Source of the DNA: a virus
Taxonomy: Duplodnaviria > Caudoviricetes
Strand: one strand, 5' to 3'
DNA: 32,102 bases
Virus record (IMG/VR): IMGVR_UViG_3300011337_000412
Coordinates: 1-32,102 of that record
In this document: piece after piece, positions 7,082-24,098 of the stretch
Position numbering within the stretch: the first letter of the stretch is position 1
Layout: the number at the start of each line of letters is the position of its first letter
Translations under genes and position numbers: made by a program
The notes under the pieces: generated by a model
The model's input: the letters and a program-made list of their open reading frames with translations, nothing else
What the model was told of the DNA's origin: nothing
Databases searched by the model: none

Positions 7082-7094
7082 ATTTTACCATCTA
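7082..7094 (-). promoter_or_regulatory. Candidate late-type promoter (TAGATGGTAAAAT), probably giving a leaderless mRNA
   Basis: Motif variant directly after a terminator. Only 5 nt separate TAAAAT from the ATG and there is no SD. Confidence 0.55.
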
Positions 7095-7126
7095 AAAAAA
7101 ACCCCTCTTTTTAGGGAGGGGATTTT
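7095..7126 (-). terminator. Rho-independent terminator, copy 1 of an identical 32-bp repeat
   Basis: CCCCTC/GAGGGG stem plus U-tract. Identical to 7415-7446. Confidence 0.9.
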
Positions 7127-7141
7127 AGAAACTATATTATT

Positions 7142-7339
7142 TTATTTTTTATAGGTTTCAACTTGTTCAGCAATCAAATCATTTATTGCTTTTTTAACTA
7201 TTTTGACATCATCTGTTGGAAGTCTGTTACTCAATAAGTTATTTACACTGCGGAGTATATTCAAAATATCTTCTGCTTGTAAATCTACACCATTAGTTTC
7301 TTCTAACAGTTGTTCCTTTTGAACTTGTTTTATCTTCAT
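7142..7339 (-). CDS. Small helical early protein, 65 aa, paralog of 7450-7677
   Basis: Has its own promoter, RBS AAGGAG and terminator. LNILRSVNNLLSNRLPTD aligns with LKELRNIKEILSNPLATD. Confidence 0.85.
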   Translation of the reverse strand: MKIKQVQKEQLLEETNGVDLQAEDILNILRSVNNLLSNRLPTDDVKIVKKAINDLIAEQVETYKK

Positions 7340-7373
7340 AACTTTTCTCCTTGTAGCTCTTATCTACACTACT

Positions 7374-7401
7374 ATTATACACCTTGCTGTTTAGATGTCA
7401 A
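7374..7401 (-). promoter_or_regulatory. Consensus sigma-70 early promoter
   Basis: TTGACA (7396-7401), 16 nt, TATAAT (7374-7379). Confidence 0.88.
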
Positions 7402-7414
7402 ATATTTTAGGCAT

Positions 7415-7446
7415 AAAAAAACCCCTCTTTTTAGGGAGGGGATTTT
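7415..7446 (-). terminator. Rho-independent terminator, copy 2
   Basis: Identical to 7095-7126, 320 bp apart. Confidence 0.9.
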
Positions 7447-7449
7447 GCA

Positions 7450-7677
7450 TTACTTCATCAACCACTTGTAAGCGTTAAGATGAGTTGTTATCAATCCATC
7501 AACTGATTGTCTTACCGTTTCCATTTGGTGGTCTGTAGCAAGCGGGTTGCTTAATATTTCTTTGATATTACGCAGTTCCTTCAACCAATCAGCGTATTGG
7601 ACAGACATCATATCTATATGCTCTTCCTTCTGGTCCTTAAGCTCTTGCAACGCAACCAACAGTCCATCTTTTCTCAT
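7450..7677 (-). CDS. Small helical early protein, 75 aa, paralog of 7142-7339
   Basis: Has its own promoter, RBS AAGGAG and terminator. Confidence 0.85.
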   Translation of the reverse strand: MRKDGLLVALQELKDQKEEHIDMMSVQYADWLKELRNIKEILSNPLATDHQMETVRQSVDGLITTHLNAYKWLMK

Positions 7678-7711
7678 AACATTTCTCCTTGTAGTGCTTG
7701 TCTACACTACT

Positions 7712-7739
7712 ATTATACATCTTTCTGTGTAGATGTCAA
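7712..7739 (-). promoter_or_regulatory. Consensus sigma-70 early promoter
   Basis: TTGACA (7734-7739), 16 nt, TATAAT (7712-7717). Near-duplicate of the 7337-7401 region. Confidence 0.88.
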
Positions 7740-7764
7740 CCTTACCTCTAAAACAATTTTGGGT

Positions 7765-7795
7765 AAAAAATAGCCCCGTGGTTAGCGGGGCTATT
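7765..7795 (-). terminator. Rho-independent terminator of the SprT-like gene
   Basis: AATAGCCCCG/CGGGGCTATT stem plus U-tract. Confidence 0.88.
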
Positions 7796-7802: not shown

Positions 7803-8501
7803 TTACAGCAGGATTTCTGGTCCTGTGTACTTGCGGATTTGCATCCAAGGTTTCTCTCCACTTGGTAGCGCAAGCCAGCTATCAAAGTTTGGCTCCGGTC
7901 CTTTATATGGCCAGCATTCTGGACATACATAGTACTTGCTTGGTCTTGACACGCTTGGGTAGCTAAAATCGCAAACCTCGCAGTAGCGTTCAAACTTGGC
8001 TGGTCTACCTTTGACACCGGATGGTCTTAAACCAAACCCAATGCGCTCTCCTTCTGCCCAAAACTCATCGCTATGGTCAAAATAGGTAAGGTGTGCTATC
8101 TCGTGGTAGAGCGTCTCAAGGATTTGAACAAACCCCCAATCCTCATAGTACTTGTAAGATATTGATATTTCAAATGTACCACCCTTTTCAGGTCGGCCAT
8201 AGCTGCGACATCTACCAGCGTACCCAACCTTATATTTGTTAATAGTAAGGTAATCAGGACGCTTTAGCACTGAACCTGGCTCAACTCCCGCACCCACATA
8301 ATGCACAGCCATACAATAGTTATATGCTGCCCAAAGGAAGGTGTGTAGTTCTACCTTGCTCAACGTCTTGTCTTCAATGTCATACTTACCAGCAAAGTGG
8401 ATGTTGTTGATAAAATTGAACTCCTTTTTAAGGCGCTCCACCAACTTGTCCTCATCTACATAAACGTGGTCTTCCCAACCATTATCTCTTTCTCTCGACA
8501 T
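7803..8501 (-). CDS. SprT-like zinc metalloprotease with C-terminal zinc ribbon
   Basis: AGRC, TLYHEIAH (HExxH), third ligand in HSDEFW, CEVC...CPEC. RBS GGAG. Confidence 0.85.
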   Translation of the reverse strand: MSRERDNGWEDHVYVDEDKLVERLKKEFNFINNIHFAGKYDIEDKTLSKVELHTFLWAAYNYCMAVHYVGAGVEPGSVLKRPDYLTINKYKVGYAGRCRSYGRPEKGGTFEISISYKYYEDWGFVQILETLYHEIAHLTYFDHSDEFWAEGERIGFGLRPSGVKGRPAKFERYCEVCDFSYPSVSRPSKYYVCPECWPYKGPEPNFDSWLALPSGEKPWMQIRKYTGPEILL

Positions 8502-8798
8502 TTTCTTTCTCCAGCTGCGGATGTTCCGCAGTCCTTATATTTGCTACTCTCTCCGCCTATGATGCGCAGTGCTCCCTTGCGGGTGCTGATTGGTTCATCC
8601 TGCTTCTCTTCCACACCTAACCCATCAGTTCTGCTGGTTGCTTACCTCCTTCTTGGAACTCATCGGTTTCAGGAGAGCCAACGTCAGTTGGGGTTTGTGC
8701 GGGAGCCCTGCTATCAGTACCTCTCCTGCTATGTTTAGTAACGTGCTGCTTGCGGGAGCCTTTCGGTCCCAGTAGATTAGGCACTTGGGCTTTGTCTA
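8502..8798 (-). ncRNA. Candidate structured RNA or long 5' leader, about 300 nt
   Basis: GC-rich, lies between a consensus promoter and the SprT start, has GAAA and GCAA tetraloop hairpins and several stems, and no convincing ORF. Confidence 0.5.
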
Positions 8799-8803
8799 CT
8801 TCT

Positions 8804-8832
8804 ATTATACATCATTCCGCAAGGATTGTCAA
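8804..8832 (-). promoter_or_regulatory. Consensus sigma-70 early promoter
   Basis: TTGACA (8827-8832), 17 nt, TATAAT (8804-8809). Confidence 0.9.
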
Positions 8833-8882
8833 CTTACCTGCTTGGTAGCCTGTGCGCTGGTCTTGCTTCCTGTTGTATCTCT

Positions 8883-8910
8883 ATTATACACCATTCCGCA
8901 GGATAAGCAA
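8883..8910 (-). promoter_or_regulatory. Second, tandem early promoter
   Basis: TTGCTT, 16 nt, TATAAT. The spacer is nearly identical to that of 8804-8832 (TGCGGAATGrTG). Confidence 0.75.
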
Positions 8911-9020
8911 CTCCACCTTCTTTTGAATAATGCCACGATTTATTAACCATTGTAATCGTAGGATTGTACATAGCCTTGATTAGCGGGTTAGGGTATAATA
9001 AGAAAAAAACCTCAAGACTT

Positions 9021-9080
9021 ATGTTGACTAAATCAGTAGGAATATACTACTTAATAATGTTGACTAAATCGATTGGAATA
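9021..9080. repeat. Direct repeat with a 36-bp period (ATGTTGACTAAATC-N4-GGAATA, two copies)
   Basis: 9021-9044 and 9057-9080 share the 14-mer and the GGAATA block at the same offset. Confidence 0.8.
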
Positions 9081-9536: not shown

Positions 9537-9692
9537 TTCGTACATCTATCTAAAAAAGTTCGTACAAGTACCATTTTATTTTCGTACATCTTTTACTTTT
9601 TTTCGTACATCTTTTACTTGTACGAGTTTTTTAGCCTATAAATCCATTCTCTTATATAACTCTCTATAACTAAAATAACTAATAATAACTAT
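9537..9692. repeat. Putative replication origin: iterons plus AT-rich repeats
   Basis: TTCGTACA at 9537, 9559, 9581 and 9602 (spacing 22, 22, 21), inverted TGTACGA at 9619, then ATAACT at 9656, 9666, 9675 and 9685. Confidence 0.7.
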
Positions 9693-10013: not shown

Positions 10014-10964
10014 ATGTACACAGAAGAAGATTACCAAATAGAACAGCAAAGAGATTTTTATAGCTCTATGATGAATGACTATAATAAGCCAAACAAAAAG
10101 AAATCTCAAAAAGAAGCATACTTTGTTTTTGAAAGTGCAATACAGTTAAGAATAAGCACACAATATTTTGAACATAAAGAAATAGAAGCAAAAGACTTTA
10201 GACATATCCAAGGTATTAGAGAAGCTTATAACTTTATTGGTAAAAACCACTATACCGTAAAACATTCATTCAAATGGTTCAATGATAACTTAAAGGATGA
10301 ATGGTTATATTGGTCTACTGATGATTGGGTTAAAAATGATAAAAAGGGTAGATTTATTCTTGAAAGTTGGATAGACCAAAACATAGTCAAAAATGCTATA
10401 AAACACTATCAAAAACCTATAAGCATACCAAAACCCATAATAATAGCAGAAACGCCTAAAACAGTGGTTATTGAGCCTAAAAAAGAAGAAGTAGAAGTTG
10501 CTATAGTTAAGATTAAAAAAGAAAAGCCAATATTCCATCCTACTCATAAACTTGTAGTAAAAGATGGAAAGGTAGATATAAATAGTTTAATCCTTGCTTT
10601 AGCTGATTTGGTTTGGAGGGAGCCAAATAGGAAAAACTTATATTATATTGATAAGCTTGATTTATCTGAACTTACTAATGACCAAAAAGATTATGTAAAG
10701 GCTGTTTTCTATCCTAATAAAAATAATGGAAATATCGCAGTATTACAAAACAACCCTTACTGGACTATTGAAAAAGCAGGGAAGAATATTATGTTAGTGC
10801 CATCAAGAAAAAGAGAAGGCTATTACTACATAGATAATAAAAATGGTAATCCAGGTTTAGTATCATTAACAACTATCAGCACCAGACTAAATATAGCAAA
10901 AAATACAGTTATTTATAGACTATCAAATATGTCATTGAAAGATTTAGTAAAAATGTCCAAATAG
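10014..10964 (+). CDS. Hypothetical DNA-binding protein, candidate replication initiator (start reassigned to MYTEE at 10014)
   Basis: RBS AGGAG before ATG 10014, basic composition, C-terminal HTH-like segment (LTTISTRLNIAKNTVIYRL), adjacent to the iterons. Function is inferred from position only. Confidence 0.5.
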   Translation: MYTEEDYQIEQQRDFYSSMMNDYNKPNKKKSQKEAYFVFESAIQLRISTQYFEHKEIEAKDFRHIQGIREAYNFIGKNHYTVKHSFKWFNDNLKDEWLYWSTDDWVKNDKKGRFILESWIDQNIVKNAIKHYQKPISIPKPIIIAETPKTVVIEPKKEEVEVAIVKIKKEKPIFHPTHKLVVKDGKVDINSLILALADLVWREPNRKNLYYIDKLDLSELTNDQKDYVKAVFYPNKNNGNIAVLQNNPYWTIEKAGKNIMLVPSRKREGYYYIDNKNGNPGLVSLTTISTRLNIAKNTVIYRLSNMSLKDLVKMSK

Positions 10965-11042
10965 TAGAAGGTGTATATAAAAAGTCTCCAGAATAGTAAA
11001 TATGTTATAAGTTGTATAACGTAAATATAGGAGACTTTTGAA

Positions 11043-11669
11043 ATGATAGGAAAACTTTTTGATAGCGGATTTCGGGATTGGGATTTATTAGAACACGAGC
11101 TTTTATTACAAGCAAAAGTAAATATTAGACAACATATTAATGAACTTAAATCCCAACAAGAAGAGATAACAAATAGACACAACCATATGATGCAAATAGA
11201 TACTACACCAAGATTTTTAAATACATTTGATATTGATGCTTTATTGACACCACAAGGAGTTGATTTTGATTGTTTAATACAAGAACAAGGTATTAGTCAG
11301 TTTCAACCATTTGCGTTGAATGAATACAAGATTTATGAAGATAGTACAAAAAGAGGGTTTTTAAAAAAATCCCAAAGATTAGCATTAGTAGAGTTAGCAA
11401 AGAAGAGCAACTTACCAGCATATTGTATTTGGAGCCATAATAACAAGGATGGTTCTTATACTTGGTTTAGAATATGTTTGCATCATACAACAGAACAAAA
11501 TATTGGTAAATATGGTATAATGAGCGATAGACAATATTATACTTGGAAGATGAGATTGAGAAAACTATACACAGAGATTGATACTGTACATTTAGAAACA
11601 TTATCAGATACATTGGTTAGAAACAGCGACAAGATTATGGAGGATATATTAAATAATGCCAGCAAGTAA
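11043..11669 (+). CDS. Hypothetical protein with a PD-(D/E)xK nuclease-like motif
   Basis: D.D...ALNEYK...SQRLALVELAKKSNLPAYCIW pattern. RBS AGGAG. Confidence 0.5.
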   Translation: MIGKLFDSGFRDWDLLEHELLLQAKVNIRQHINELKSQQEEITNRHNHMMQIDTTPRFLNTFDIDALLTPQGVDFDCLIQEQGISQFQPFALNEYKIYEDSTKRGFLKKSQRLALVELAKKSNLPAYCIWSHNNKDGSYTWFRICLHHTTEQNIGKYGIMSDRQYYTWKMRLRKLYTEIDTVHLETLSDTLVRNSDKIMEDILNNASK

Positions 11670-11865
11670 TAACACATTTGGAATGACACAAATGGAAATA
11701 GCAAATAAGAGTGGTTTACATCAAAGTCATATTAGCAAGTATCTCAATGGTAAATCAATGCCTACTTTGGTTAATATTGAAAGGATTGCTGATGCTTGTA
11801 ATATTACGATTGAAGAAGTTAGTCAGTATCTTTTATCAGCATACAAGACAAGAAAAGCAGGATAG
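11656..11865 (+). CDS. XRE/Cro-family HTH regulator
   Basis: GMTQMEIANKSGLHQSHISKYLNGKSMPTLVNIERIADA is a classic HTH_3 pattern. RBS GGAGG. Confidence 0.92.
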   Translation: MPASNNTFGMTQMEIANKSGLHQSHISKYLNGKSMPTLVNIERIADACNITIEEVSQYLLSAYKTRKAG

Positions 11866-11913
11866 TTGTTATACCTCCAAGTATATATTAAATAATGTAC
11901 TTGGAGGACTATT

Positions 11914-12684
11914 ATGATGCATACAAGTTGGACTGATTATAACATTAGTCGTAAAAAAAATAAGTTACCTACTCTCGATGATGATAGATGGTTAGCAGAT
12001 AAATATAATAATGGTAGGGATAAGGATGCTAATAAGGCAGCAGAAGAAATCTTATCATTATATGGAAATCTTGCTCATAGTATTGCTATTAAATGTAAGG
12101 GTAGAGGAGTTGAGTTAGAAGATTTATTACAATCAGCAAAAATGGGATTATTATATAGTCTTACAAAATACAATGCTGATAAAAGTAAACTATCAACTTA
12201 TGCTACACCTTGGATTTGGCAATATTGTTTGAGAACTATTGAAAATACAGGAAGAACTATTAGACTTCCAAATCATATCCACGAGGCTTTAATACAAATC
12301 ATTAGAGCAGGAATAGATTTAGATTATACAGAACTAATAAAAATAATAGATTTACCACCAAGTAGAATACAGGCTGCTCTTGATGGATATAAAACAATGA
12401 CAATGAGCCTGGATGATATTAATGATATATATGAGGATAAAAATATGGACAGAGTTATTTTAGACAGCGTAATGGAAAGTGTTTTAGAGTTGTTTTCAAA
12501 GGATGAGTTATCTCTCAATGTTATTAAAGATTATTGTGGTCTTGGCGATGAAGATGAGATGATGGATGTTCAGTTACTTTCTGCTAAATATAATAAGCCA
12601 GTAAGAGAAATGACTGATATCTTAAATACAGCTCTTAATGCTATTAGAGACAGTGGTATTCTTGATGGAGAAACAATAGAATAA
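11914..12684 (+). CDS. Phage-encoded sigma-70 family RNA polymerase sigma factor
   Basis: Region 2 GRGVELEDLLQSAKMGLL...KLSTYATPWIWQ and RTIRLPNHI, region 3 SLD, degenerate region 4. Confidence 0.92.
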   Translation: MMHTSWTDYNISRKKNKLPTLDDDRWLADKYNNGRDKDANKAAEEILSLYGNLAHSIAIKCKGRGVELEDLLQSAKMGLLYSLTKYNADKSKLSTYATPWIWQYCLRTIENTGRTIRLPNHIHEALIQIIRAGIDLDYTELIKIIDLPPSRIQAALDGYKTMTMSLDDINDIYEDKNMDRVILDSVMESVLELFSKDELSLNVIKDYCGLGDEDEMMDVQLLSAKYNKPVREMTDILNTALNAIRDSGILDGETIE

Positions 12685-12685
12685 T

Positions 12686-13111
12686 ATGGAAAAAAAGATT
12701 AGTGTTGGTTATGATTGCTATAAGAGTATTGTAAGCGATAATGAAGATTTGCGTAATGAAAATGAAGAGTTAGAAGAAGCAGTAGAACAACTAAAAAAAG
12801 AACTACAAGAAGCTAAATCAGAACATACAATGGACCAAGCAAGAGTTGTATTTGCTCATCATATATTAAATGGTTGTAGAGACGAGCAAGTTTTAATACA
12901 CCAGGATAAAAAAGCGCAAGAAGTTGTATTTTGGAAGATGAAGAGCGATAAGTATTTTTATGAGATGGAACATTATCAAAAAAGTAATAAAGCTTGGCAA
13001 ACAAAATATGAAAGTTTATTCCAAAAACATCAAGAGCTTTTAGGAGCAATCGTAGAACTTGAAAATGTTATAGATGATTATCAAAAACATAGCAAGTGTT
13101 GTAAGAAATGA
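12686..13111 (+). CDS. Coiled-coil hypothetical protein
   Basis: Heptad-rich E/K/L sequence, RBS GGAG, in operon. Confidence 0.75.
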   Translation: MEKKISVGYDCYKSIVSDNEDLRNENEELEEAVEQLKKELQEAKSEHTMDQARVVFAHHILNGCRDEQVLIHQDKKAQEVVFWKMKSDKYFYEMEHYQKSNKAWQTKYESLFQKHQELLGAIVELENVIDDYQKHSKCCKK

Positions 13112-13221
13112 ACCAGCTATTATTTTGGTTTAGTATAGTTCAACTTTTCTTATGTGGATTTTATTTTGGATATTTATTTGGCGATAGAAATGAGAAAAAA
13201 AGAGAAAAAAATGAAAAGTAA
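13108..13221 (+). CDS. Small membrane peptide, 37 aa (MNQLLFWFSIVQLFLCGFYFGYLFGDRNEKKREKNEK)
   Basis: Hand translation. ATGA overlap with the upstream stop, one hydrophobic helix and a charged tail. Confidence 0.6.
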   Translation: MNQLLFWFSIVQLFLCGFYFGYLFGDRNEKKREKNEK

Positions 13222-13279
13222 ACTGGGCGATTATGTAATAGAAAAATATTTAGAATGGTTGAAGGAAAAAGATAGATAG
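13211..13279 (+). CDS. Possible 22-aa peptide (MKSKLGDYVIEKYLEWLKEKDR)
   Basis: Overlaps the previous stop codon and looks like an amphipathic helix. Confidence 0.4.
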   Translation: MKSKLGDYVIEKYLEWLKEKDR

Positions 13280-13404
13280 ATGTTGTATAATATAAGTGTA
13301 AGTGGAAATCAGACAGGATAGTAGACGTACATTAAAATGAGCAATACATAAACTTACAAGAAATAAATAACATTTTTGTTTATTTTGCAACACAGTCTAA
13401 AGAA

Positions 13405-13452
13405 AATAACCCCGGAGGTAAACGTATTTTTACGATGAGACCGGGGTTATTT
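13405..13452. terminator. Bidirectional terminator-like hairpin where the two transcription directions converge
   Basis: AAATAACCCCGG/CCGGGGTTATTT 12-bp stem with a large loop. Confidence 0.7.
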
Positions 13453-13457
13453 GTATG

Positions 13458-13643
13458 TTATCTCTTAAATCTATTAAACTGTTCTAACTTTAAAATATAT
13501 GCTAAATGTGCTAAATCAACTGGGTCGAGTTTTTGTAGTTTTATTTTTTCTACTGCCAATGTTGGTTTTGATAAGTTTATTGTTTTTGTTTGATTGTGTA
13601 AAGGATTTTGTACTAAAAATAAAAGACAGATTAGACTACTCAT
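13458..13643 (-). CDS. Small protein with hydrophobic N-terminus, possible lysis accessory
   Basis: Likely start MSSLICLLFLV overlapping the upstream stop. Downstream of the endolysin. Confidence 0.5.
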   Translation of the reverse strand: MSSLICLLFLVQNPLHNQTKTINLSKPTLAVEKIKLQKLDPVDLAHLAYILKLEQFNRFKR

Positions 13644-13878
13644 AACCTTTTCCAATACCAGCTTTATTTGCTGTTTCTACTTTTACTTTGCGATGATACA
13701 TTTCTACTTGCACAGCTTTATCTAACAGCTTCATATCATCATCAGAAAGGGGCTTAAATACCTCTTTTACGCCATTCTTAATCAAACTATCCATCAACAT
13801 ACTACCAAGTGGAAAAGAAGCTAAATCCACTTCAGGAACACCGATTTTCTTCTTCAAAAAGTTGCTAATAATACTCAT
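13636..13878 (-). CDS. Hypothetical protein, 80 aa, in the lysis region
   Basis: RBS AGGAG, directly after the endolysin. Confidence 0.7.
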   Translation of the reverse strand: MSIISNFLKKKIGVPEVDLASFPLGSMLMDSLIKNGVKEVFKPLSDDDMKLLDKAVQVEMYHRKVKVETANKAGIGKGYE

Positions 13879-13886
13879 TCTATCTC

Positions 13887-14411
13887 CTAATACATTTTAA
13901 TAAAACCGCCAAATACTCCAAAGTTTATCCATTTTCTATGTTTACGGTAAACTCCATCTCCATTTGCAGTTACTACATCAGTTTCTGGGCCAGTATTACC
14001 TTCAACCATTAATACTCCACCCTCAATAGTATTTATTACAACTCCAATATGGTATATCCTGCCTTTTGTTTTGCTATAGAATAAACCAAGATAACCTTTT
14101 TTCAATAGTTCTGGATTGTCTCTTGCTTCTTGAACAGTAATAAATCTTTTATTATCTTTTGCCCAAGCAGCCCAATCAGGTGTCCATCCAGATAAATCCA
14201 TAAAAGATTTAGGCATTTTCTTCTTTAGTTTTTTTGCTGCTTCAATGTATCTATATTTAACAAAAGCTGCACACCAAGCATAACCTTCATCAAGATTTAC
14301 TGTTTTTAAATACTTGGCGATATGGTCTCCGTGGTTGTCTTCGCCCTTTTCTGTTGTGCCTACATTTAACAGTGCTTCTTCCGCTGCTTTTATTGCTATT
14401 TGTTCGTCCAT
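13887..14411 (-). CDS. Endolysin, CHAP / NlpC-P60-type peptidoglycan hydrolase
   Basis: AWCAAFV (catalytic Cys), HIGVV (His), VEGNT and DGVYRK motifs. Confidence 0.88.
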   Translation of the reverse strand: MDEQIAIKAAEEALLNVGTTEKGEDNHGDHIAKYLKTVNLDEGYAWCAAFVKYRYIEAAKKLKKKMPKSFMDLSGWTPDWAAWAKDNKRFITVQEARDNPELLKKGYLGLFYSKTKGRIYHIGVVINTIEGGVLMVEGNTGPETDVVTANGDGVYRKHRKWINFGVFGGFIKMY

Positions 14412-14416
14412 ACATC

Positions 14417-14429
14417 ATTTTATCCTAAC
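14417..14429 (-). promoter_or_regulatory. Candidate late promoter (GTTAGGATAAAAT) giving a leaderless endolysin mRNA
   Basis: GATAAAAT is 5 nt before the ATG with no SD. Same geometry as 7082. Confidence 0.45.
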
Positions 14430-17310
14430 TAAATGTAACTCCACCGTCATAACTTCTGACAATAGTAATGCCTGTTGTAGCGTGGGAATATACTAAATAA
14501 ACTACGTCATCTCTTGTGTATGCAGCTAATCCATTAGTAGTTACATTTCCAGTTACTACAATAGAAGATGCTATAAATGTATTTCCAGCAGGGTCTATTG
14601 CTATTCTTCTAATAGAACCTCCACTATCAGTAGTACGGAAAAAATGAAACTCTACACCATTTCTATACAATGCTACTGCTGGTTGTGTTCCAATGCCTAA
14701 TGTTGTTGCCAATGTTGCTACTCCTGTTTCAAGATTATTTAAGATATATTTATTTATATTTCCTGCGCTGTCTTGCACATCTAATATAAGATTATTTGTA
14801 TTACTAAATCTTTGCCATTTTACTGCTGCTCCAACTGCTCCTGTAATATTAGTAGTTAAGATAGTATAAGTGGAGAAATCAGGAGTTATATTTAGCTGAA
14901 GTTTTATAACACCAGCATCTTGATAAGCAATAACGTGTTGATACATATCGCTATGGTCTGCTGATAAAACAGCATTAACTACAACAGGATTTATGAATGC
15001 TCTTCTATACTTTTTAGAAGCATAAAGAGGTGTAATGTTAGATGTTAAAGTAAGGTAATCTACTCTATGGTTTTTGAATGAAAGACCCATAGGAGTACCT
15101 GTCTTATAAGTGCCATTTAAGGCTGAAATACCGCTTCCTCTATTAGCAAGAGTAGATGACAGCTTTAGGTCAACATTACCAGCAAATAAGGGTGTTTTTG
15201 TGCCATCTACTAATAATCCAAATGCTGGTCCTCTCAATATAGAAACTGATGGTAATGTAATCAATGGAAATGATGTTTCTTTGTAAACACCAAAAGGGTC
15301 TCCATAATCAGGTATTAGTTCATTTGTTAAAAACTCATCAAAATAAGTTTGAGCAAGAACTTGACAATCTGCTTCTCCTTGATTTTGATAAACATTTAAA
15401 TAATCTTTTTGTATTGTTCCACCGCCAGTATCTGCTTTATAAGTAATGCCACCTAACCAAAGAGCATAACCTGTTGCAGAGTTAGCATAAGATAATCTAT
15501 TAACCCCAGCAGCCGTAGAAGGAGAAGCAGTCCAACCTTTATGATTACCTTGTACTCTTGTAGTAAAGTTTGTTATTGTATTATTAGTTGCTACACCTGA
15601 TACTTTTAGAACATCAAACTCTTCCTCGTGTCTTCCTGATGTATTTTGACACCATAATCTTCTACCAAAATATGTAGTTCCAGCTGTAGCATCAGTTTCT
15701 ACCTTTATATAATATTCAGGAGCAAAAGCAAAATCAGATTGAGAAGTAGTAGCATCAGCAACCACCCATACCCTACCCAAAGTAATGTTAGCATTAGCGA
15801 TAGCAAGTTGAGATATCCGTGTAACTCCATACCAATCAAGATTAGTCCTCTCTTGTAATGGATTTGAGCCAGATGGAGACAATCTTGGATAAGGGTCATC
15901 TTGGTCATCTATGCTCAATGATTTATTTTTAGGTATCAGTAAATCAAATCTTTTTATCTCATATGCTGCTGATGATGTGCTAAAAGTATATGATTTTGTG
16001 TCAGAACCAGGTTGACAAGTTAAAGATAATGTATCTGATTGTAAAGTACCAGTATTACTTTTTACTTCTATTTCAAGATATCTATAACTATTAAAGTTTT
16101 CTGTAGGGCTAAATGTTCTTGTATTTGTAGTTCCACCAGCAGTTATTTGTGTGGAGTTAGCAAGTTCCATAAAAGCGCCAGGAAAGTTCCAACCTCTAAA
16201 TGGCAATCTGGTGTATTTAGGGTCATCTCCATTAGTTGTAAGAGATGAACCAATAATAGCGGTCTTTATAGCATTAGGAAGTGTAAAGACAGGTCCAGTA
16301 TTAACTATTTGTGCTGATGCTCCAGGATAGGCTAAAAGATTACTGCTAATACTATAATCAAAATAAGTATCGCTTTCATCGTAACTACCTGTTCTAACAA
16401 TATCTCTATAACCTAAACCAGCATTATCTACACCAGTTAATCTAATAGTTAATGGATTTGGATAAGATACATCATAAGCATTGATTTTACCAAGAAACTT
16501 CATTCTTCTTTCTAATGCTGTATGTGCTGTCATTGTAATAGTTGACTGCTGTGGGTCTCCAAAAGCATCATCAGTGCCAAGTATCTTAAACTCTGCTGAT
16601 GTTCCAGTTTGAGTAGCATAAAAGTTTGAAGAAATAAAGTTTAAATGGCTATAACTTGGAACTGATACAAGATTAGTAGTCATAGCAGAAAGATTTAAAA
16701 TACTTAAACCAGAAGCAGCACCAGCCTTATAAAAACTACCAACAATAGTATCAAATCTATAATCTGTGCCAAGAGAAGTAGCAACAACAGAAGTTGCTGT
16801 AACTGTTGTACCACTGATAGTTACTTGACAAAGAGCAGTACCACCAACAGTACTTCTTTCATATTGTTTGTAAGTTGTGTAGAGAGGATAATCTAATACT
16901 GCTGTTGCTGTTTCATTGACATCATATTTTATATCTGATGGTACTTCAAAATGAAAACTACCACTCATAGTACCAGTTACATTAGCATAAGATGCAGCAG
17001 GAATACCAGTTTGACTATTTAGTAGAATGTCAGAAGTAGTAGATGCTCCGTGTCCATTGGTAACAGTTACACGAGCATATAAAAACCAAGACCAAGGTAA
17101 ACCAATGCCAGCAGTAGTTTTAACAATCAAACTTCTTATTCTTGCTGAACAACCATAATGACCACCAACAGTAAAATCAAAGTTGGAAGTTTGCATATAA
17201 GTGCCAGGAGGAATAACAGCATTAGGATGGCCTTCTTTTTGATTAAATCCTATGAAAGAAAATAAAGCATCCTGTCTGCTTGTTCTTGATAAATCAGTAA
17301 ATGTTGGCAT
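14425..17310 (-). CDS. Large tail-tip or receptor-binding structural protein
   Basis: 961 aa, T/S/G-rich beta character, downstream of the tape measure gene. Confidence 0.65.
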   Translation of the reverse strand: MPTFTDLSRTSRQDALFSFIGFNQKEGHPNAVIPPGTYMQTSNFDFTVGGHYGCSARIRSLIVKTTAGIGLPWSWFLYARVTVTNGHGASTTSDILLNSQTGIPAASYANVTGTMSGSFHFEVPSDIKYDVNETATAVLDYPLYTTYKQYERSTVGGTALCQVTISGTTVTATSVVATSLGTDYRFDTIVGSFYKAGAASGLSILNLSAMTTNLVSVPSYSHLNFISSNFYATQTGTSAEFKILGTDDAFGDPQQSTITMTAHTALERRMKFLGKINAYDVSYPNPLTIRLTGVDNAGLGYRDIVRTGSYDESDTYFDYSISSNLLAYPGASAQIVNTGPVFTLPNAIKTAIIGSSLTTNGDDPKYTRLPFRGWNFPGAFMELANSTQITAGGTTNTRTFSPTENFNSYRYLEIEVKSNTGTLQSDTLSLTCQPGSDTKSYTFSTSSAAYEIKRFDLLIPKNKSLSIDDQDDPYPRLSPSGSNPLQERTNLDWYGVTRISQLAIANANITLGRVWVVADATTSQSDFAFAPEYYIKVETDATAGTTYFGRRLWCQNTSGRHEEEFDVLKVSGVATNNTITNFTTRVQGNHKGWTASPSTAAGVNRLSYANSATGYALWLGGITYKADTGGGTIQKDYLNVYQNQGEADCQVLAQTYFDEFLTNELIPDYGDPFGVYKETSFPLITLPSVSILRGPAFGLLVDGTKTPLFAGNVDLKLSSTLANRGSGISALNGTYKTGTPMGLSFKNHRVDYLTLTSNITPLYASKKYRRAFINPVVVNAVLSADHSDMYQHVIAYQDAGVIKLQLNITPDFSTYTILTTNITGAVGAAVKWQRFSNTNNLILDVQDSAGNINKYILNNLETGVATLATTLGIGTQPAVALYRNGVEFHFFRTTDSGGSIRRIAIDPAGNTFIASSIVVTGNVTTNGLAAYTRDDVVYLVYSHATTGITIVRSYDGGVTFS

Positions 17311-20300
17311 TATAGTGTGTCAAAAACCTTAAAATACAATGGAACAGTTAAACTTTTTCCAGTTCCATAAGAGTTAGTAACTGTCAAACTTACATTAGCA
17401 ACTGATTTAGTTTGTGCTGGAGATGGTGTCCAATCAAATATAATATTTTGAGTAGAACCATCAAATGTTGAACTTGATACTGTCATACCACTTGGAACAC
17501 CAGATGTTGTAAATGTAAGAGCATTTGCACTTGTAATAAATCTTAAGATAGTTTTTGATGCAACATTTTTTTGTACATTGACTACATTGCTATAAAGCAA
17601 GTTTACTTTATCATCTTCATAAATATTTGCTTTATTAGTATAGTTTACTTTGACTGCTTTATAGGTTGCTTGTGTAACATTTATTTGGTCAGGCTTTTGT
17701 AAAACACCAAGAACATAAACAGGAATGTTAGCTTTGACAAACTCAACTTTATAACTTAAGATTTTATAATATCCAGTTGAAGTTCCTGTTGTATCAAATA
17801 TTTCAACATCTTGGTCGCAATCTAAAAATGCATATTGGTCGCAAAGTATATAAGGATTTCTTGTGTAATATTGAGATGATGTTACAGCATAAAGAGCATT
17901 TGTTGTTAATGTTAAAGAAGTATTCGATGCTATTGTTGCTACTGTTCCAATAAGATAACCATCAGGAGAATATAACTTATCTCCTATAGCAAGTTGAGAT
18001 AAGAATAATGTTCCTACACCACCAATACCATTACTATAAGTAAAACTATCAATAGTGCCATTTTTTGCTGGTAAAGGTTCCGCATTTGGATATTTTGTAA
18101 AGTTATTATAATAAGTTAAATAATCAGAAGTAAACTCTACTATTTCTCTTCCGGTTGTTATTTTATCAAAGAAACTTTGTGCAGAACTTTCAACAATATT
18201 TTGTGTAGTCAATCTATCATTTTGATAACAAAATGATTTTACTAAACCAAGCCAGTTATTAGGTCTGTTAGTAATGAAAGGATTTTGAGAGTTTACATCA
18301 TCTATTATTGCTGTTAATCTATCATTATTTGTTTTATCAGTGCCAATAACAATAACTTGATTTGCTTCTGGTTGTTCATAAGTCTTTTTTAAGTTTCTTA
18401 TTGTTCTTTTATAAGCTTTTGATAATGCGATAGAACCAAAAGTATTAGCATTTGTTTCTGATAAATATAATGGAACACTAAATGTATTATTATATGGTTG
18501 AGTTGTATTTCTATTTGTTAACCATACTGTACCTGCATTCAAAAATCTATTATAATCTGTATTATAAAACCAGCCGTATGTATATTTATAGGCAATATTT
18601 TGAGTAAGTTCTGAACGTAGTTTTTCAATAAAAGAACCTACACTATCGGAAATATTAGCAGTCCAGTTATATTGACCATTAGAGTTATTTCTATTAAAAC
18701 CTAAATCATAACCAAGTAATGATTGGTCTTGTAAAACAAAAGTTGGTTTTACTGCTAAACCACCATAGTTGCCTAAAACAATAAAAGCATTTTGTAATGA
18801 TAATCCATCTAATGAAGGTGCTTTTGTAAAATAAACTTCATTTAATGCTTGTTTTCTATCATAACCTTCAAAAGTTAATAATGAATATTTATCATAGTTA
18901 GGCCCTTGAATGTACTCTATTTCAGGATTTTTGAGAAAACCTTCAAATATAAGTATTTCATCATAGTTTAAATCTCTTGGTTTAAGAGTAATCTTTACAG
19001 GTCTATTTGATAACCTATCAGGATTTGTCATTCCTAAATCAATAAGATTTTGTTTTCTCGCACTAAATGTACAACCATTTTCTCCTTCTTCTGTTTTTTC
19101 AATAAGTAAACTTTCAACAACAGATGTAATATCTATTTGTGTAGTTTTAGTTTTTTGATTTTCATAAAAAATAATAACGTCAACAGAATAAAAAGTAAAT
19201 GAACTATCATTATTTTTAAGAGGATTAGTTGGAGCTATTGTGCTTTGGCTTGTTGCTTGTATTACAAAATATGAACTACTTGATAAACTTTGTCCTGTTC
19301 CATTTCCTAAAATAGTAAGACTTGGTGGCAATATATCAGATATTTGTGTAGTATTAGCAGGACCTAAAACTTCTACTTGATTATTTTGAAAAACACTATT
19401 AATAACAGGTAAGTTAGTCCAATATGCTGAAGTACTACAATCTGTCATACTATTATAATATAAAGTCATTGAAGTATTTGAAGATATACTTTGTACTTTA
19501 CCTAAATAATAATCATTTGGGTCGTAAATATCATCATTTACAGCAACTTCAGTAGTAAATAATGTTCCGACACCAGTTATAATATTTGATGATGTTGATG
19601 CAGTTATAGTGCCAGTTTTTTTCTTCATCAAAGTAAATGAAGATGCTTGTTTAAACTTTCCACTTCCAGTTAGTGTTAATGATGTAGTAGAAGCAACAGA
19701 AAAGATAGTTCCTATTTCAAGTGGACCAAAACCATCTGACTCAAGACTAAATAATCTTCCACCAACCCAAGATGTTAAAAAACCAGTTCCTACACCAGTT
19801 ACAGTATTTGAATAAGTTGATGAAGATATAGTTCCTACTTCAGCAGTTACAGTTCTATAACCAAAGTTTGAAAAACCTTGAGCAGCAACTTCATTATAAA
19901 TATTTTTACTTTTGATAGTCCAGTTTGAAAGAAAACAAAGTTTAGCAAGCTGAAATGCTACTTTACCATTAGGAATAACAATACTAAAAGCTCCTGTAGG
20001 TAATATTTCTGGAACCATAAAAGCTTGACCAGGAACAGCTGTACTTCCAGCTGAATATCCACCCATATAATACAATACAGGCCCAACATCATTTGGAGAA
20101 ACTAAATCCTCAAAAGTATGAGAAAAGTTTAAACCATAGTTAGTATTGATAACAAGTTCTTTGCCTCTCATAGGCATAATATAAACATCATTGTAATCAT
20201 TATTAGGATTACCATTTCTGATGCCTACTGCTTGTTGATTGTAGTTATTTTCATTTCTACTATAAGATGCAACTTTTTGAGGCTGTTTATTATGAAATCT

Positions 20301-21023
20301 TCCAGTGTAGTTGAATGTAGGATTAAAAAATAATATTAAAGTAGTAGCATTTGTAATAGATAGAACTGTTCCAATAATCCTACCATCTTCTGTATATAAG
20401 TTATCATTAGCTGCGAGTTCTGTAGTAAATAATGTACCTGTTCCAGTTACTGTTGCTGATGAAGTACTACAAACAATAGTTCCAGTTTTTAAAATATAAC
20501 CACGGTAAATATCGCAGGAACCATCATCTTTCAAATGAAGTTGAGTATCTCTATTTACAAAACTATTTCCAGCCCAAAATAACTTTGCAGTAATATTAGT
20601 ATTACTTTCTTTTTTATTTTGTCTAATGAAAGAAAAGAATAATGGTTGATTTCTTGATACTCCACCATTTAAACTAATAGCGCCATTCATTATTGGTACA
20701 GAGTTAGATAAACAATAAAAATATGGGTCTGTAGTGCTATAGAAGTTTATATCTTTCCAGGATGATGGAGAAGTAAATGTAAAATCAGCAAAAAGAAATC
20801 TTGCATATCCTTGACCTGTAAATGTTGTTTTCCATTCAGGTGTGTTTGGAATAGGCTGTCCCATAACTGCTCTTGTAACTGGTTCAATATAACAGTTGAC
20901 AGCAGTAGATGTATCCCAAGAAGTTCCATCAACAGCATATACAAAAGGTGCTTTTACATTTCTACGGGATTGTGGATAATCAACATAAACTTTTACATCA
21001 AGTTCATCAAGATTAGATGGCAT
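17310..21023 (-). CDS. Large tail hub-like protein with four inserted repeats of about 60 aa
   Basis: 1237 aa directly after the tape measure gene. Repeat GT...TG.GT.F......D.L...G..IGT..SI...T.LTL occurs four times. Confidence 0.7.
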   Translation of the reverse strand: MPSNLDELDVKVYVDYPQSRRNVKAPFVYAVDGTSWDTSTAVNCYIEPVTRAVMGQPIPNTPEWKTTFTGQGYARFLFADFTFTSPSSWKDINFYSTTDPYFYCLSNSVPIMNGAISLNGGVSRNQPLFFSFIRQNKKESNTNITAKLFWAGNSFVNRDTQLHLKDDGSCDIYRGYILKTGTIVCSTSSATVTGTGTLFTTELAANDNLYTEDGRIIGTVLSITNATTLILFFNPTFNYTGRFHNKQPQKVASYSRNENNYNQQAVGIRNGNPNNDYNDVYIMPMRGKELVINTNYGLNFSHTFEDLVSPNDVGPVLYYMGGYSAGSTAVPGQAFMVPEILPTGAFSIVIPNGKVAFQLAKLCFLSNWTIKSKNIYNEVAAQGFSNFGYRTVTAEVGTISSSTYSNTVTGVGTGFLTSWVGGRLFSLESDGFGPLEIGTIFSVASTTSLTLTGSGKFKQASSFTLMKKKTGTITASTSSNIITGVGTLFTTEVAVNDDIYDPNDYYLGKVQSISSNTSMTLYYNSMTDCSTSAYWTNLPVINSVFQNNQVEVLGPANTTQISDILPPSLTILGNGTGQSLSSSSYFVIQATSQSTIAPTNPLKNNDSSFTFYSVDVIIFYENQKTKTTQIDITSVVESLLIEKTEEGENGCTFSARKQNLIDLGMTNPDRLSNRPVKITLKPRDLNYDEILIFEGFLKNPEIEYIQGPNYDKYSLLTFEGYDRKQALNEVYFTKAPSLDGLSLQNAFIVLGNYGGLAVKPTFVLQDQSLLGYDLGFNRNNSNGQYNWTANISDSVGSFIEKLRSELTQNIAYKYTYGWFYNTDYNRFLNAGTVWLTNRNTTQPYNNTFSVPLYLSETNANTFGSIALSKAYKRTIRNLKKTYEQPEANQVIVIGTDKTNNDRLTAIIDDVNSQNPFITNRPNNWLGLVKSFCYQNDRLTTQNIVESSAQSFFDKITTGREIVEFTSDYLTYYNNFTKYPNAEPLPAKNGTIDSFTYSNGIGGVGTLFLSQLAIGDKLYSPDGYLIGTVATIASNTSLTLTTNALYAVTSSQYYTRNPYILCDQYAFLDCDQDVEIFDTTGTSTGYYKILSYKVEFVKANIPVYVLGVLQKPDQINVTQATYKAVKVNYTNKANIYEDDKVNLLYSNVVNVQKNVASKTILRFITSANALTFTTSGVPSGMTVSSSTFDGSTQNIIFDWTPSPAQTKSVANVSLTVTNSYGTGKSLTVPLYFKVFDTL

Positions 21024-22585
21024 TATGCTCTCCTCGGATTAATATTTAAACTATTGGTAACTTGGTGTCCTTTGATAAGTTTTATAACACCTCTTGAAAT
21101 ATCATTAGAAGCACTGATTTGAGGACTGCCAACTCTTCCATATCCTCTCATTTCAGTATTAGAAATGCCTTGTGCTGCTAACATACCACCACCATATGTA
21201 AGATTTCTCAATGTTGCTTCTGATGTTTGTTTAGTATGGTTTTCAATCATATTAAGTGCTTTTAGTTGCTTTTCTTGTATTGCTTTAGCTTCTTTTTGTT
21301 TACTACCAGCACCGCCACTTTCATCTCTTCCAGAACCAGTAGTAGCATTAGCATTTAACATTGTATCATCAGGAATAAATGTAGTTTTTTTACCAAAAGC
21401 TTGCCCTATTTTATATGCATTATCATTAGCAGTTTCTCCAATAACACCTTGAAGAATATTTAGTTGTCTCATTTGACCAGATAAATCTAATGTAGCAGGA
21501 GTAAGTTTTATATTACGAAGTTCATCTAACTTTTCAAAATCCCAATCAAGAAAAGCACCAATCTTTTGCATTATAAGGTCAACTTCTAAAAACTTTTTAC
21601 CAATATAATCAAAGACCTTACCAATCATAGTTCCAAATATTTGTGCGTGTGCTGGAATAGATTGAAAATATGCCAAAATAGTACCTACTACTTTTGCAAT
21701 CATAGTTTGAACACTTTTATTATCAATACCTTTTGATAAGTTGTTCATCATTCCTGTGCCAATAGCTAAAAATCCCTTTACAGTATCAGCAATAACACCA
21801 GATTTAATAACTGCCCCTAATGTTTTATTTAGGGCATCAATAAGAGGACCAGCAAAAGATATAAGTTCTTTACCTATTTGTTCTTTTAAACGAGTAAAGA
21901 AATCAGTAAGAGTTGCTAATCTTGCTTCAAATGTTTTACCAACTTTTTCAGTAAGACCAGATGTCATTCTATCTATTTCATTCATAACTGCTTGTATAGC
22001 TGGTCTAATACCACCAACAAGCTTTCCTTGGTCAAACTTTAATCCAGCTTTTACTAAAATATCTGAAAAGCCTAATGATTGTAATAGTTCTTGGTCTGGT
22101 TTAACGCCTGCTCTCAATAAGTTTAGAAGTCTTACCATTCCTTGTAGTTTTTCAGAACCACCACCAATAGCATCAGCCCATTTAGCTAATCTTGGAACAG
22201 CAGCATTAACATTAAACCCTGCTTGATGAAGTTGAAGGGTCATTTCTTTTAGTTGAGCAGTTGTAAGAGTAGATGTTTCTGCTACACTATAAAGCATTTG
22301 ATTTGTTTTACCAACATCTAATCCAAATGCTGCAAAACGAGCATTAGTAGTTTCTGCTTCCATACCAGCTTGAAATAAAGATTTAGCAAGGTCAAAAGCA
22401 CCACCAGCCATTTTCATCAAAGTATCGCCAATAATATTACCAGTAGCAATAGACATAATGGAAGAAACCATAGAGTTAGCAGATTTACCTGTTTCCTCCA
22501 TCGTTTTTCCAACTTCTTTAATATCAGATTTAAGTTTTTCAGCACCAACAGTACCAAACTTAATAATGAGTTCAGCAAATGTCAT
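21023..22585 (-). CDS. Tail tape measure protein
   Basis: 520 aa, helical and A/G/K-rich, starts MTFAELIIKFG, follows the chaperone genes. Confidence 0.88.
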   Translation of the reverse strand: MTFAELIIKFGTVGAEKLKSDIKEVGKTMEETGKSANSMVSSIMSIATGNIIGDTLMKMAGGAFDLAKSLFQAGMEAETTNARFAAFGLDVGKTNQMLYSVAETSTLTTAQLKEMTLQLHQAGFNVNAAVPRLAKWADAIGGGSEKLQGMVRLLNLLRAGVKPDQELLQSLGFSDILVKAGLKFDQGKLVGGIRPAIQAVMNEIDRMTSGLTEKVGKTFEARLATLTDFFTRLKEQIGKELISFAGPLIDALNKTLGAVIKSGVIADTVKGFLAIGTGMMNNLSKGIDNKSVQTMIAKVVGTILAYFQSIPAHAQIFGTMIGKVFDYIGKKFLEVDLIMQKIGAFLDWDFEKLDELRNIKLTPATLDLSGQMRQLNILQGVIGETANDNAYKIGQAFGKKTTFIPDDTMLNANATTGSGRDESGGAGSKQKEAKAIQEKQLKALNMIENHTKQTSEATLRNLTYGGGMLAAQGISNTEMRGYGRVGSPQISASNDISRGVIKLIKGHQVTNSLNINPRRA

Positions 22586-22773
22586 ATTCTACTTCCTAAT
22601 AATGCGTTAAGAATGGCAGAGGCGTTATCAGCCTCTGCCCTATCTATTTCCCGACCTATCATTGCTATTTCTGCTATTTGGTCAAGAGTTAAATCAACTT
22701 CTATCGGATGTCTTTTCAAGTATTTAACGCAATAATATAATACTTGTTGGGAACATCCGATTAGTCGTTTTTT
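22582..22773 (-). CDS. Tail assembly chaperone GT extension, made by -1 frameshift
   Basis: Slippery A AAA AAC at 22767-22773. The -1 frame reads RLIGCSQQVLYYCVKYLKRHPIEVDLTLDQIAEIAMIGREIDRAEADNASAILNALLGSRI and stops at a TGA overlapping the tape measure ATG. Confidence 0.8.
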   Translation of the reverse strand, partial: KKRLIGCSQQVLYYCVKYLKRHPIEVDLTLDQIAEIAMIGREIDRAEADNASAILNALLGSRI

Positions 22774-23141
22774 GCTTCTTGTACCTTTTTGTCAATATTA
22801 TTAGAAGGAAAAGCGTTAAGGAACTCTGTTAGAATATGATAAAAACATTCTTTATTATCTCTACCAAGTTGTGCAAAATCGTGTATTGGGTTTGTTTCAT
22901 TAGGGTCATTATCCTGATGAACATAACATTTACCCAAAAGAGCAATCTGATATAACATTGCATCAGGATACTCTGGATACTTGATTTTAAGATTATGAAT
23001 AAAACCAGCATCAGGAAACAAGGCTGCGCTTGTTGGTTCTGATAGTTCTACAAAACAATCTTCTCCCGCAAAAGATGATAAATCAATCTTTACAGCAGGA
23101 CGTACTTCTAACTTTTTTACTTTTGATAATCCACTAATCAT
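22761..23141 (-). CDS. Tail assembly chaperone G
   Basis: Lies between tail tube and tape measure genes and ends EAKND over the slippery site. Confidence 0.8.
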   Translation of the reverse strand: MISGLSKVKKLEVRPAVKIDLSSFAGEDCFVELSEPTSAALFPDAGFIHNLKIKYPEYPDAMLYQIALLGKCYVHQDNDPNETNPIHDFAQLGRDNKECFYHILTEFLNAFPSNNIDKKVQEAKND

Positions 23142-23153
23142 ATATTTTCCTTA

Positions 23154-23600
23154 TTACGCAGAGATAGAAGTCAAACCAAATGCTCCGAGTTTAATAGTTG
23201 CACTTTCCATTTCAACATTGTTTGGGTCTAATGAAATAGATTGGTCTGTAACTAATCCAGCATATGTAAATGTACCACCAGTAGTTGTGGTAAGGTCTAC
23301 TAAAATCTTACATAAGAAACCAACTTTGTCCCTAAAAATAGGACCATCAACTTTATCAACATAAAGTTCAATATCTACTGTTCCACTCTTTCTTGTTTCA
23401 AAAACAGCGTCAATATTTGAACATAAAGTTGACAAATCAATAGTTTGACTACCGATAGATGCTTTAAAACTTTTAGCATAACAGGTATAACTTACAGTTG
23501 GTGCAGCTGGTACTGCTGTAGCACCACCAGTTGCTTGAGAGACAGTACCAAAACTGATTTTGACTGTTGCTCCATTTACTAAAACAGGCGTATTAGGCAT
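23154..23600 (-). CDS. Major tail tube protein
   Basis: 148 aa beta-rich (IDLSTLCS, SGTVDIE, FTYAGLVT), position, RBS GAGGA. Confidence 0.8.
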   Translation of the reverse strand: MPNTPVLVNGATVKISFGTVSQATGGATAVPAAPTVSYTCYAKSFKASIGSQTIDLSTLCSNIDAVFETRKSGTVDIELYVDKVDGPIFRDKVGFLCKILVDLTTTTGGTFTYAGLVTDQSISLDPNNVEMESATIKLGAFGLTSISA

Positions 23601-23615
23601 TTTTTATAATCCTCT

Positions 23616-24098
23616 TTATTTAATAACTACAAAACGAAATAACATTGATAGGCCAAAATCAACTCTACCATCTTGTTGTACTACTACAGGCATTTCAGTA
23701 TCATATCTTTGACATTGAAACAACACACCATTTACAGTGGCAGTAGTATTACCCAATAAAGTATCAACTCTCTCGGCAATAGATTTTAGCGTATTGAATG
23801 AAACAGCTCCAGAAGAAGAGTGCCAAACAGTTATTCTGTACAATGGATGAGATAAATAAGTATCCCCACATAAGACTGCATCATCTACACTTTCAGAACC
23901 ATTACGAGCAAAAACAACATATGGAGTTTGAGGTGTAACTCCACTTACTGGGTCTCTTTCAGGTGCTAATGTTGAATAAACTCCAATCTGATAGTTTTTA
24001 ACAGCACTATTAACTTTTGCCAGTTCTGTTTGTAAAGTATTATCTACTTTTAATGTACTGTAAATATATTGTTCTATTGCGAGTGGTTCAAAAGCCAT
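23616..24098 (-). CDS. Tail terminator / completion protein (DUF3168-like)
   Basis: IYSTLK.D, PYVVF, ITVW and IAERVDTLL patterns. Position. Confidence 0.82.
   Translation of the reverse strand: MAFEPLAIEQYIYSTLKVDNTLQTELAKVNSAVKNYQIGVYSTLAPERDPVSGVTPQTPYVVFARNGSESVDDAVLCGDTYLSHPLYRITVWHSSSGAVSFNTLKSIAERVDTLLGNTTATVNGVLFQCQRYDTEMPVVVQQDGRVDFGLSMLFRFVVIK

Follow-up and report, generated by a model that had tools for sequence, protein, structure and literature searches.

The window analysed here is the whole 32,102-nucleotide viral record IMGVR_UViG_3300011337_000412 (Duplodnaviria; Caudoviricetes), which at 32.1 kb appears to be complete and encodes a terminase, a portal, a prohead protease, a VRR-NUC protein and a sigma factor of its own. 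Strains close to this phage are present in river, freshwater, estuary and marine runs, and the closest terminases of cultured phages share less than 40% identity with that of the window. The sigma-70-family factor (11914-12684) is 83% identical in relatives. In run X18 a related strain covers the GC-richer part of an 841-aa gene (25500-27600) thinly, and the match in the relative G002 extends over no more than 286 aa of this gene; this is a variable segment, probably concerned with host range.

On the minus strand of an early-type region built of promoter-gene-terminator cassettes there is a leader of about 300 nt in front of a gene for a SprT-like protease (7803-8501). A reading made from the sequence alone had pointed to these GC-rich nucleotides within an AT-rich phage, and the leader is indeed the most GC-rich stretch of the window (52% against 34% overall, with none of 1591 sliding 298-nt windows, step 20, as high); the GC content of the SprT gene is likewise elevated (45%). 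The perfect promoter that it described is also present, a sigma-70-type TTGACA-17-TATAAT at 8832-8804 that agrees with the consensus at 12 of 12 positions. TATAAT lies 4 nt ahead of the first stem of the RNA in all eight homologues, with 3-6 of 6 matches to the -35 element, and canonical spacing predicts a start site near 8797, so that the first two bases of the first stem may be upstream of it. The cassette ends with a terminator-like hairpin at 7769-7795 that has an 11-bp stem, is listed on the plus strand and is followed by a T run on the minus strand.

A weaker promoter-like site with a unit of about 50 nt behind it lies further upstream (8833-8910, repeat D4; -35 at 8910-8905 and -10 at 8888-8883) and is present in six of the eight homologues. 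In L008 (from the relative G001) the unit behind this promoter (1163-1209) copies the 5' hairpins of the RNA, and the same copy is seen by eye in L179 (1100-1150); the window, L002, L003 and L178 have a different unit of about 50 nt at this position. The 5' domain of the RNA may be a separate small RNA. An identical 7-nt word is found in the spacers of both promoters (8880-8900 and 8801-8821) and as an inverted pair in the hairpin next to the ribosome binding site (8515-8531); it is operator-like, yet it is absent from that hairpin in L008, L117 and L009. The AT-rich DNA at 9021-9080 and 9553-9632 has tandem repeats of 24 and 21 nt and an inverted repeat and is origin- or operator-like; in relatives, members of the 24-nt family are again found ahead of the promoter. 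Two more promoter-small ORF-terminator cassettes at 7090-7740 have perfect promoters at 7739 and 7401 and share a leader repeat of 66 nt and, without differences, a terminator repeat of 32 nt. We read these as swappable expression cassettes; their 65-aa ORF (7142-7339) has no tblastn match in seven related sequences and their 75-aa ORF is matched in three.

The 232-aa product of the downstream gene is predicted to be a SprT/WLM-like HExxH zinc metallopeptidase, and thus a putative protease, with a four-cysteine C-terminal part. Pfam WLM matches are found in 10 of 10 family members and SprT-like matches in nine (E≤0.05), with the window protein itself below the Pfam cut-offs (17.9 against 25.6 bits for SprT-like, 19.5 against 26 for WLM). 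H133, E134, H137 and H143, which form the HExxH motif and the third histidine, are invariant in 9 of 9 proteins. The predicted model (pLDDT 79.7) has its best structural match in 6mdx_A (Z 9.6, rmsd 3.3, 109 residues aligned, spanning residues 22-191), Foldseek returned no match to it at E≤0.001, and a protein atlas places the protein with SprT-like clusters (0.92). The SprT-like label given to the gene beforehand is upheld by these family matches and by the zincin fold. The HExxH zincin fold is shared with the SPRTN and Wss1 zinc proteases (6mdx, 5ln5); identity is 19%, and the activity here is a predicted one. The fold also matches YbeY-type ribonucleases (Z 5.7-6.1), whose histidine spacing is like that of the protease, though the protein keeps the peptidase glutamate. 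The close protein family comprises 15 clusters at 90% identity, with three clusters at 50% having E below 1e-30; the shorter relatives P0016 and P0017 have no cysteine-rich tail.

At least eight loci carry the RNA: the window, L002, L003 and L009, the last three found by protein searches, and L008, L117, L178 and L179, found by scans for RNA motifs. L180 duplicates L003 and the L178 contig ends within the RNA, leaving seven full copies. In all seven loci with downstream sequence the RNA precedes a co-oriented SprT-like gene and has a promoter upstream, and the linkage holds from either direction of search, since the RNA is present in 3 of 3 loci found through the protein and the gene in 3 of 3 that the RNA led to (L008, L117 and L179). 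Each of six records has a single full copy. The five records with flanking genes belong to one narrow phage group, and the median identity of the other genes is about 77-81% in the four relatives compared. The RNA and the protease stay together even where they are inverted relative to their neighbours, in L003 (G004) and L117 (G003). The RNA-protease block points away from the VRR-NUC/terminase block in these two and the reverse in the window, L002, L008 and L009; the L003/L117 orientation is a recurrent inversion.

Wider searches returned few homologues. Blastn of 8480-8960 against 50,697 phage records gave 17 short matches, all at chance level, the L009 RNA has no homologue among the plasmids searched and the L117 protein none among the phages. 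A search of metagenome contigs with the protein alignment gave 0 of 597 stretches, and none of three candidate loci in genome (GTDB) contigs is real. Scans with 15-mers and with the P3 hairpin (described below) gave 4 real loci of 47 and 4 of 8 respectively, all of them already known, and the RNA-motif scan, which covered 38 of 64 parts, gave at least 119 loci, of which at least five are real and one is new; there may be further viral homologues beyond the parts scanned.

The most conserved part of the leader is a 177-nt core (8556-8732) with 111 of 177 positions invariant in the seven full homologues and with identities to the window copy of 0.72-0.99. Core identity to the window is 0.83 in L009, 0.84 in L008 and 0.90 in L003, against 0.62-0.66 at fourfold-degenerate sites, so that three of four relatives have a core conserved above these sites; the exception is L117 (0.72 against 0.69). 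Identities of 74-100% over part or all of the length are also seen in other between-gene stretches (ig_1_640 was left out as coding), and core identity alone is therefore not special. The gene behind the core is among the most divergent of the shared genes, with the protease showing 34% identity in G001 and in G003, where it ranks lowest of 10 shared genes in each, and 52% in G002, where it is second lowest of 21; in G004 its conservation is ordinary (82%).

The leader is, judged from the alignment, a real and non-coding element. A 55-codon GTG frame is intact only in the window and L002, ends after 15-16 codons in L003, L008, L179 and L117 (four of eight) and is shifted in L009 and L178, so that the codon-type conservation of this ORF that the sequence-only reading had named as the finding against an RNA is not seen, the frame being lost in six of eight copies. 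Leader indels of 1, 2, 4 and 7 nt occur besides multiples of three; in this comparison the coding rows of L179, which had been cut out of frame, were set aside. Stop-free runs of 63-93 codons are present on the opposite strand in all seven full copies, in a frame that differs between copies.

Several helices are kept across the homologues, and the hairpins listed in the sequence-only reading are all present in the window. The 5' stem P1 (8799-8795 with 8776-8772) pairs in 92.5% of alignment cells with one U-A to U-G change, and encloses a structured insert of about 80 nt in L009. Hairpin P2 (8770-8754) forms 5-6 bp with variable letters in seven of eight homologues and is missing from L009, and P3 (8704-8721), a 7-bp stem with an invariant AUAG loop, pairs in 52 of 56 cells, with three columns that vary on one side and keep their pairing and one column that is A.G in four of eight. 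The long-range 4-bp helix Pa (8692-8689 with 8624-8621) closes a predicted knotted domain and is Watson-Crick in 32 of 32 cells. Within this domain is an invariant 11-nt segment (8688-8678), identical in all eight copies, whose final five bases could pair with 8666-8662, with 8637-8633 or with 8593-8589. The CCAAC/GUUGG hairpin proposed at 8691-8678 loses one pair in L117, and the GNRA loops that had been pointed out in the window are there, although only some copies keep them. The 6-bp helix Pk (8676-8671 with 8650-8645, CUCUCCU/AGGAGG) pairs in 45 of 48 cells, and the 5-bp helix Pc (8660-8656 with 8631-8627), which crosses it, is Watson-Crick in 40 of 40 cells; Pc never varies, so covariation neither supports nor contradicts it. 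Towards the gene there are a hairpin of variable length, P7 (8583-8574; 3-7 bp in all seven full homologues and longer in L117 and L009), and, after an A-rich linker and immediately 5' of the Shine-Dalgarno sequence, P8 (8531-8515; 6-8 bp in all seven, with changed letters), in which two pairs change on both sides; read on the opposite strand, P8 resembles a terminator in the window and L117 and not in L009. Invariant purine-rich blocks with few supported pairs lie in the 3' third of the core; a self-complementary 6-mer here (8563-8568), kept in six of seven full copies and reduced to a 4-mer in L117, could allow dimers to form.

In the untouched alignment seven helices pair in 95% of 280 cells against 30-44% in slid controls, with five both-sided pair changes against 0-1, in a test that ignores the relatedness of the copies. 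Two helices with two Watson-Crick swaps each arise in 8 of 2000 column shuffles and one such helix in 200 of 2000, which is the level matched by Pa, where both pairs changed on both sides are changed in L117 only. The three columns of Pk with Watson-Crick swaps appear after gaps were moved by hand, and the register of that helix is to this extent hand-set. Where P3 and Pk change on one side only, the result on the transcribed strand is G-U and never A-C. From these comparisons P2, P3, Pa, Pk, P7 and P8 appear to keep pairing through base changes, in few independent events. Because Pc crosses Pk, the core is likely pseudoknotted or a kissing-loop junction; two topologies are compatible with the model: Pa, Pb and Pc may meet in a three-way junction in which Pk is the kissing-loop pairing, or Pa, Pb2 and Pk may form one nested stem, its apical loop folding back to pair through Pc. 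The minimum-energy helix 8628-8619/8595-8586 has four of ten pairs broken in L117 and competes with Pa, and was set aside. A helix at 8627-8623/8564-8560 holds in all seven full copies, one double change in it involving a wobble; it uses bases that also belong to Pa and Pc and is a possible alternative fold.

Folding energy gives a different picture. The leader has a z-score of -0.87, with 42 of 200 shuffles folding as well, and the scores across the seven full homologues run from 0.0 to -1.96, so that the leader does not fold more stably than shuffles, an outcome that the sequence-only reading had itself counted against an RNA. We give the paired base changes more weight than the z-score since the folding program cannot score pseudoknots.

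Comparison with known RNA classes bears out the statement that the leader could not be matched to any of them, as the RNA copies of the window, L009, L008, L117 and L179 match no Rfam 15 covariance model at E≤10. Being non-coding and conserved, with paired base changes and no Rfam match, the leader is best read as an RNA of the kind first suspected, and the alignment supports a structured RNA, so far uncatalogued, with a fixed place before a variable protease gene in one narrow phage group. The short purine-rich blocks of the core are reminiscent of the conserved elements of cobalamin riboswitches; the cobalamin riboswitch model (RF00174) matches 0 of 1 record at E≤10, against 11 of 14 control genomes, and the closing helix that it needs is lost. 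Phi29-type pRNA (RF00044) matches none of four records, the stem of an SRP RNA helix 8 is not kept and is changed in L117, no tmRNA gene is found, and resemblances to group I and group II introns and to hammerhead motifs were considered and dropped. As a phage RNA that is made from a strong promoter and has a covarying pairing between loops, possibly of different molecules, the leader resembles phi29 pRNA and other loop-loop multimer RNAs (ROOL, GOLLD and OLE); the window phage differs from the phi29 case in having an ordinary terminase, portal and prohead protease.

The leader RNA is not described in the literature found. Fremin et al. (2023, PMC10690425) list two candidate viral RNAs, DNAVirus_6430 and DNAVirus_8057, no more than 25 bp before SprT genes, one of 67 nt with seven marine sequences and a Hyphomonas host and the other of 40 nt with 45 freshwater sequences. 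They are unlike a 300-nt motif with six IMG/VR copies, a comparison made on the sizes and habitats tabulated in that study; the 40-nt candidate may overlap part of the leader RNA. The accessible text of the Minerva preprint mentions neither SprT nor a protease. The leader of timP, from the timPR type I locus, is also long and has a covarying pseudoknot far upstream of the ribosome binding site of a potentially harmful protein, and as described there the pseudoknot is required for translation of the toxic protein (PMC11228461). It shows no likeness to the leader here in sequence or in Rfam; no antisense antitoxin RNA is identified at this locus and the gene is that of a 232-aa phage protease. 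We use timP as a working analogy only, under which an effect of the leader on translation is predicted.

A Shine-Dalgarno-like GGAG (8512-8509) lies 7 nt before the ATG, and such a motif is found 7-9 nt ahead of the start codon in all seven full copies, with a predicted unpaired probability of 0.53-0.87; in the unconstrained ensemble it is mostly open. The sequence-only reading had envisaged a switch in which 8677-8670 pairs either with the upstream CAGGAGAG or with an orphan Shine-Dalgarno sequence. Both partners are present, but the switch between them is unsupported. Both strands of 8676-8671/8650-8645 change in L003, L009 and L117 with loss of the Shine-Dalgarno-like reading, the letters of AAGGAGGU are changed in the same three copies and partly in L008, L178 and L179, and the pairing with CAGGAGAG (8728-8721) loses its inner half and keeps its outer three or four pairs. 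We therefore reject that switch, the 8650-8645 pairing being a covarying structural helix whose Shine-Dalgarno-like letters are not kept.

A different candidate anti-RBS is formed by the invariant segment 8688-8678 and the 8 nt that follow it. Together with the 5' strand of Pk this segment makes the best duplex with the ribosome binding region in six of seven copies, and it is able to cover the Shine-Dalgarno and start-codon region in all seven, in a register that differs between copies. Against shuffles that keep the Shine-Dalgarno sequence and AUG, the p values are 0.23, 0.26, 0.05, 0.014, 0.024, 0.012 and 0.06, for a segment that was picked post hoc. The SprT ribosome binding site ranks third of 33 window genes in its pairing with the segment, two other genes pairing better, and shuffled ribosome binding sequences choose the same segment in 16-101 of 150 trials. 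The anti-RBS fold is at least as stable as the nested core fold in all seven copies, with the core scored without pseudoknot energy. The anti-RBS switch is a weak lead. Complementarity of the core to the rest of its own genome reaches at most 13 nt, and none is common to the window and G002.

We tentatively favour, at a little short of an even chance, a conserved non-coding 5' leader whose likely pseudoknotted core would gate translation of the protease. The folded core, closed by Pa, would hold the segment 8688-8678 and the Pk 5' strand; on unfolding of the core these would pair with the Shine-Dalgarno sequence and start codon and turn the protease off. Stabilisation of the core, and with it translation, would come from a conserved host cue (a small molecule or a protein) or from slow refolding. 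The cue is more likely to be something conserved than the protease itself because proteases of 34% identity are swapped beneath a nearly unchanged core. What marks a cis-acting leader is found here, as the same gene family is always 3' and co-oriented and there are compensatory changes, of few independent events. On the other side, P8 and the ribosome binding site track the protein clade and not the core type, as is expected of two independent modules, and a very strong promoter and 177 conserved bases exceed the needs of a simple gate.

The main alternative, somewhat less likely than the gate, is a stand-alone early phage RNA that is strongly transcribed, cut or trimmed from the front of the message and active in trans, where it would bind a host protein or RNA or self-assemble through intermolecular loop-loop pairing at Pk. 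P8 and the Shine-Dalgarno sequence would then be the protease gene's own short leader, and this resembles the neighbouring cassettes, each with its own promoter, short hairpin and Shine-Dalgarno sequence; retention of the core while the gene is swapped also fits. The sole metatranscriptome contig on 6000-10500 lies inside the core (8556-8717) and carries the variants of a close strain, which the DNA of the same sample holds at depth 37, and one of its ends, at 8556, is the last conserved base of the core; such contigs, here from one study, show neither ends nor strand. Its depth of 9.5 is ordinary for its run, in which the control stretch 10501-30500 has nine contigs, the eight listed having depths of 2.1-21.2 and lengths of 151-359. 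The leader appears in the RNA library as other phage parts do, and the absence of RNA contigs over the SprT gene carries no weight as evidence (run X22 has only pieces below 25 nt and run X19 is probably DNA). Against an independent RNA, it is never found apart from the gene (seven of seven loci), and no sense-strand terminator was found between the core and the SprT gene in the window, L117 or L009.

A bolder form of control in cis, which we regard as improbable, would be a new class of riboswitch carried by the phage. It would respond to a signal from the host, for instance an immune second messenger or a metabolite of one stage of infection, by allowing translation of an anti-host protease that is rapidly exchanged. 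Purine-type translational ON riboswitches combine a three-way junction with kissing loops. The leader resembles them in one of its two possible core topologies, where a loop-loop helix accompanies a three-way junction, in its invariant junction bases, in its low folding z-score and in its possible anti-RBS; it differs in having no Rfam riboswitch match and a weakly supported expression platform.

Two other readings are doubtful to a similar degree. One is that a ribozyme or processing signal cuts the transcript, so that a protease message starting near P8 is set free. Catalytic RNA cores have many invariant bases beyond simple stems and crossed helices, and the leader has both, with P8 and the Shine-Dalgarno sequence as a plausible new 5' end; no Rfam ribozyme model matches it at E≤10. 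The other is a two-part system in which the zinc-binding C-terminal part of the SprT-like enzyme would bind the RNA, with the enzyme serving as its own repressor, as an activator or as an antitoxin-like partner. The linkage of RNA and gene is fixed, the 6mdx_A match spans both the protease and C-terminal parts, and the zinc-binding domain of SPRTN binds single-stranded DNA. Such partnership is argued against by proteins of 34% identity behind cores that are 72-84% identical, with a core type that does not follow the protein clade, and by PADLOC, which matches none of 10 proteins. Type III toxin-antitoxin loci carry RNA repeats followed by a terminator in front of the toxin gene; here there is no terminator between RNA and gene, no repeat family lies within the RNA among the 20 of 34 repeats listed, and there is one full copy per record.

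It is less probable still that the leader has no RNA function and is a hidden peptide gene, a DNA-level control region or passively conserved among close phages. The non-significant folding z-scores, the equal conservation of other between-gene stretches and the open runs on the opposite strand all agree with this; the broken or shifted GTG frame, the non-triplet indels and the opposite-strand frames that swap between copies do not, nor do the whole hairpins inserted at loop positions in L117 or the G-U pairs, which favour an RNA made from the transcribed strand. The suggestion of a CsrA/RsmA-type sponge is scarcely credible, for although the reported count of about ten GGA is borne out in the window copy, it is at chance level (10 against 7.4 ± 1.9, and within 1.4 sd in all seven full copies), none of the nine window GGA listed in the column scan is kept in all seven full homologues and most lie within stems or linkers and not in the loops of hairpins.

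The catalogue of structured regulatory RNAs from phages is thin. The present leader, which has no Rfam match, is small and self-contained, with a reach limited by the single narrow phage group in which it is found. If the riboswitch reading were true, a fixed RNA sensor would be wired to swappable effector alleles. That a constant core precedes a gene which is among the most variable of the phage points to a sensor or a scaffold tied to the conflict between phage and host.
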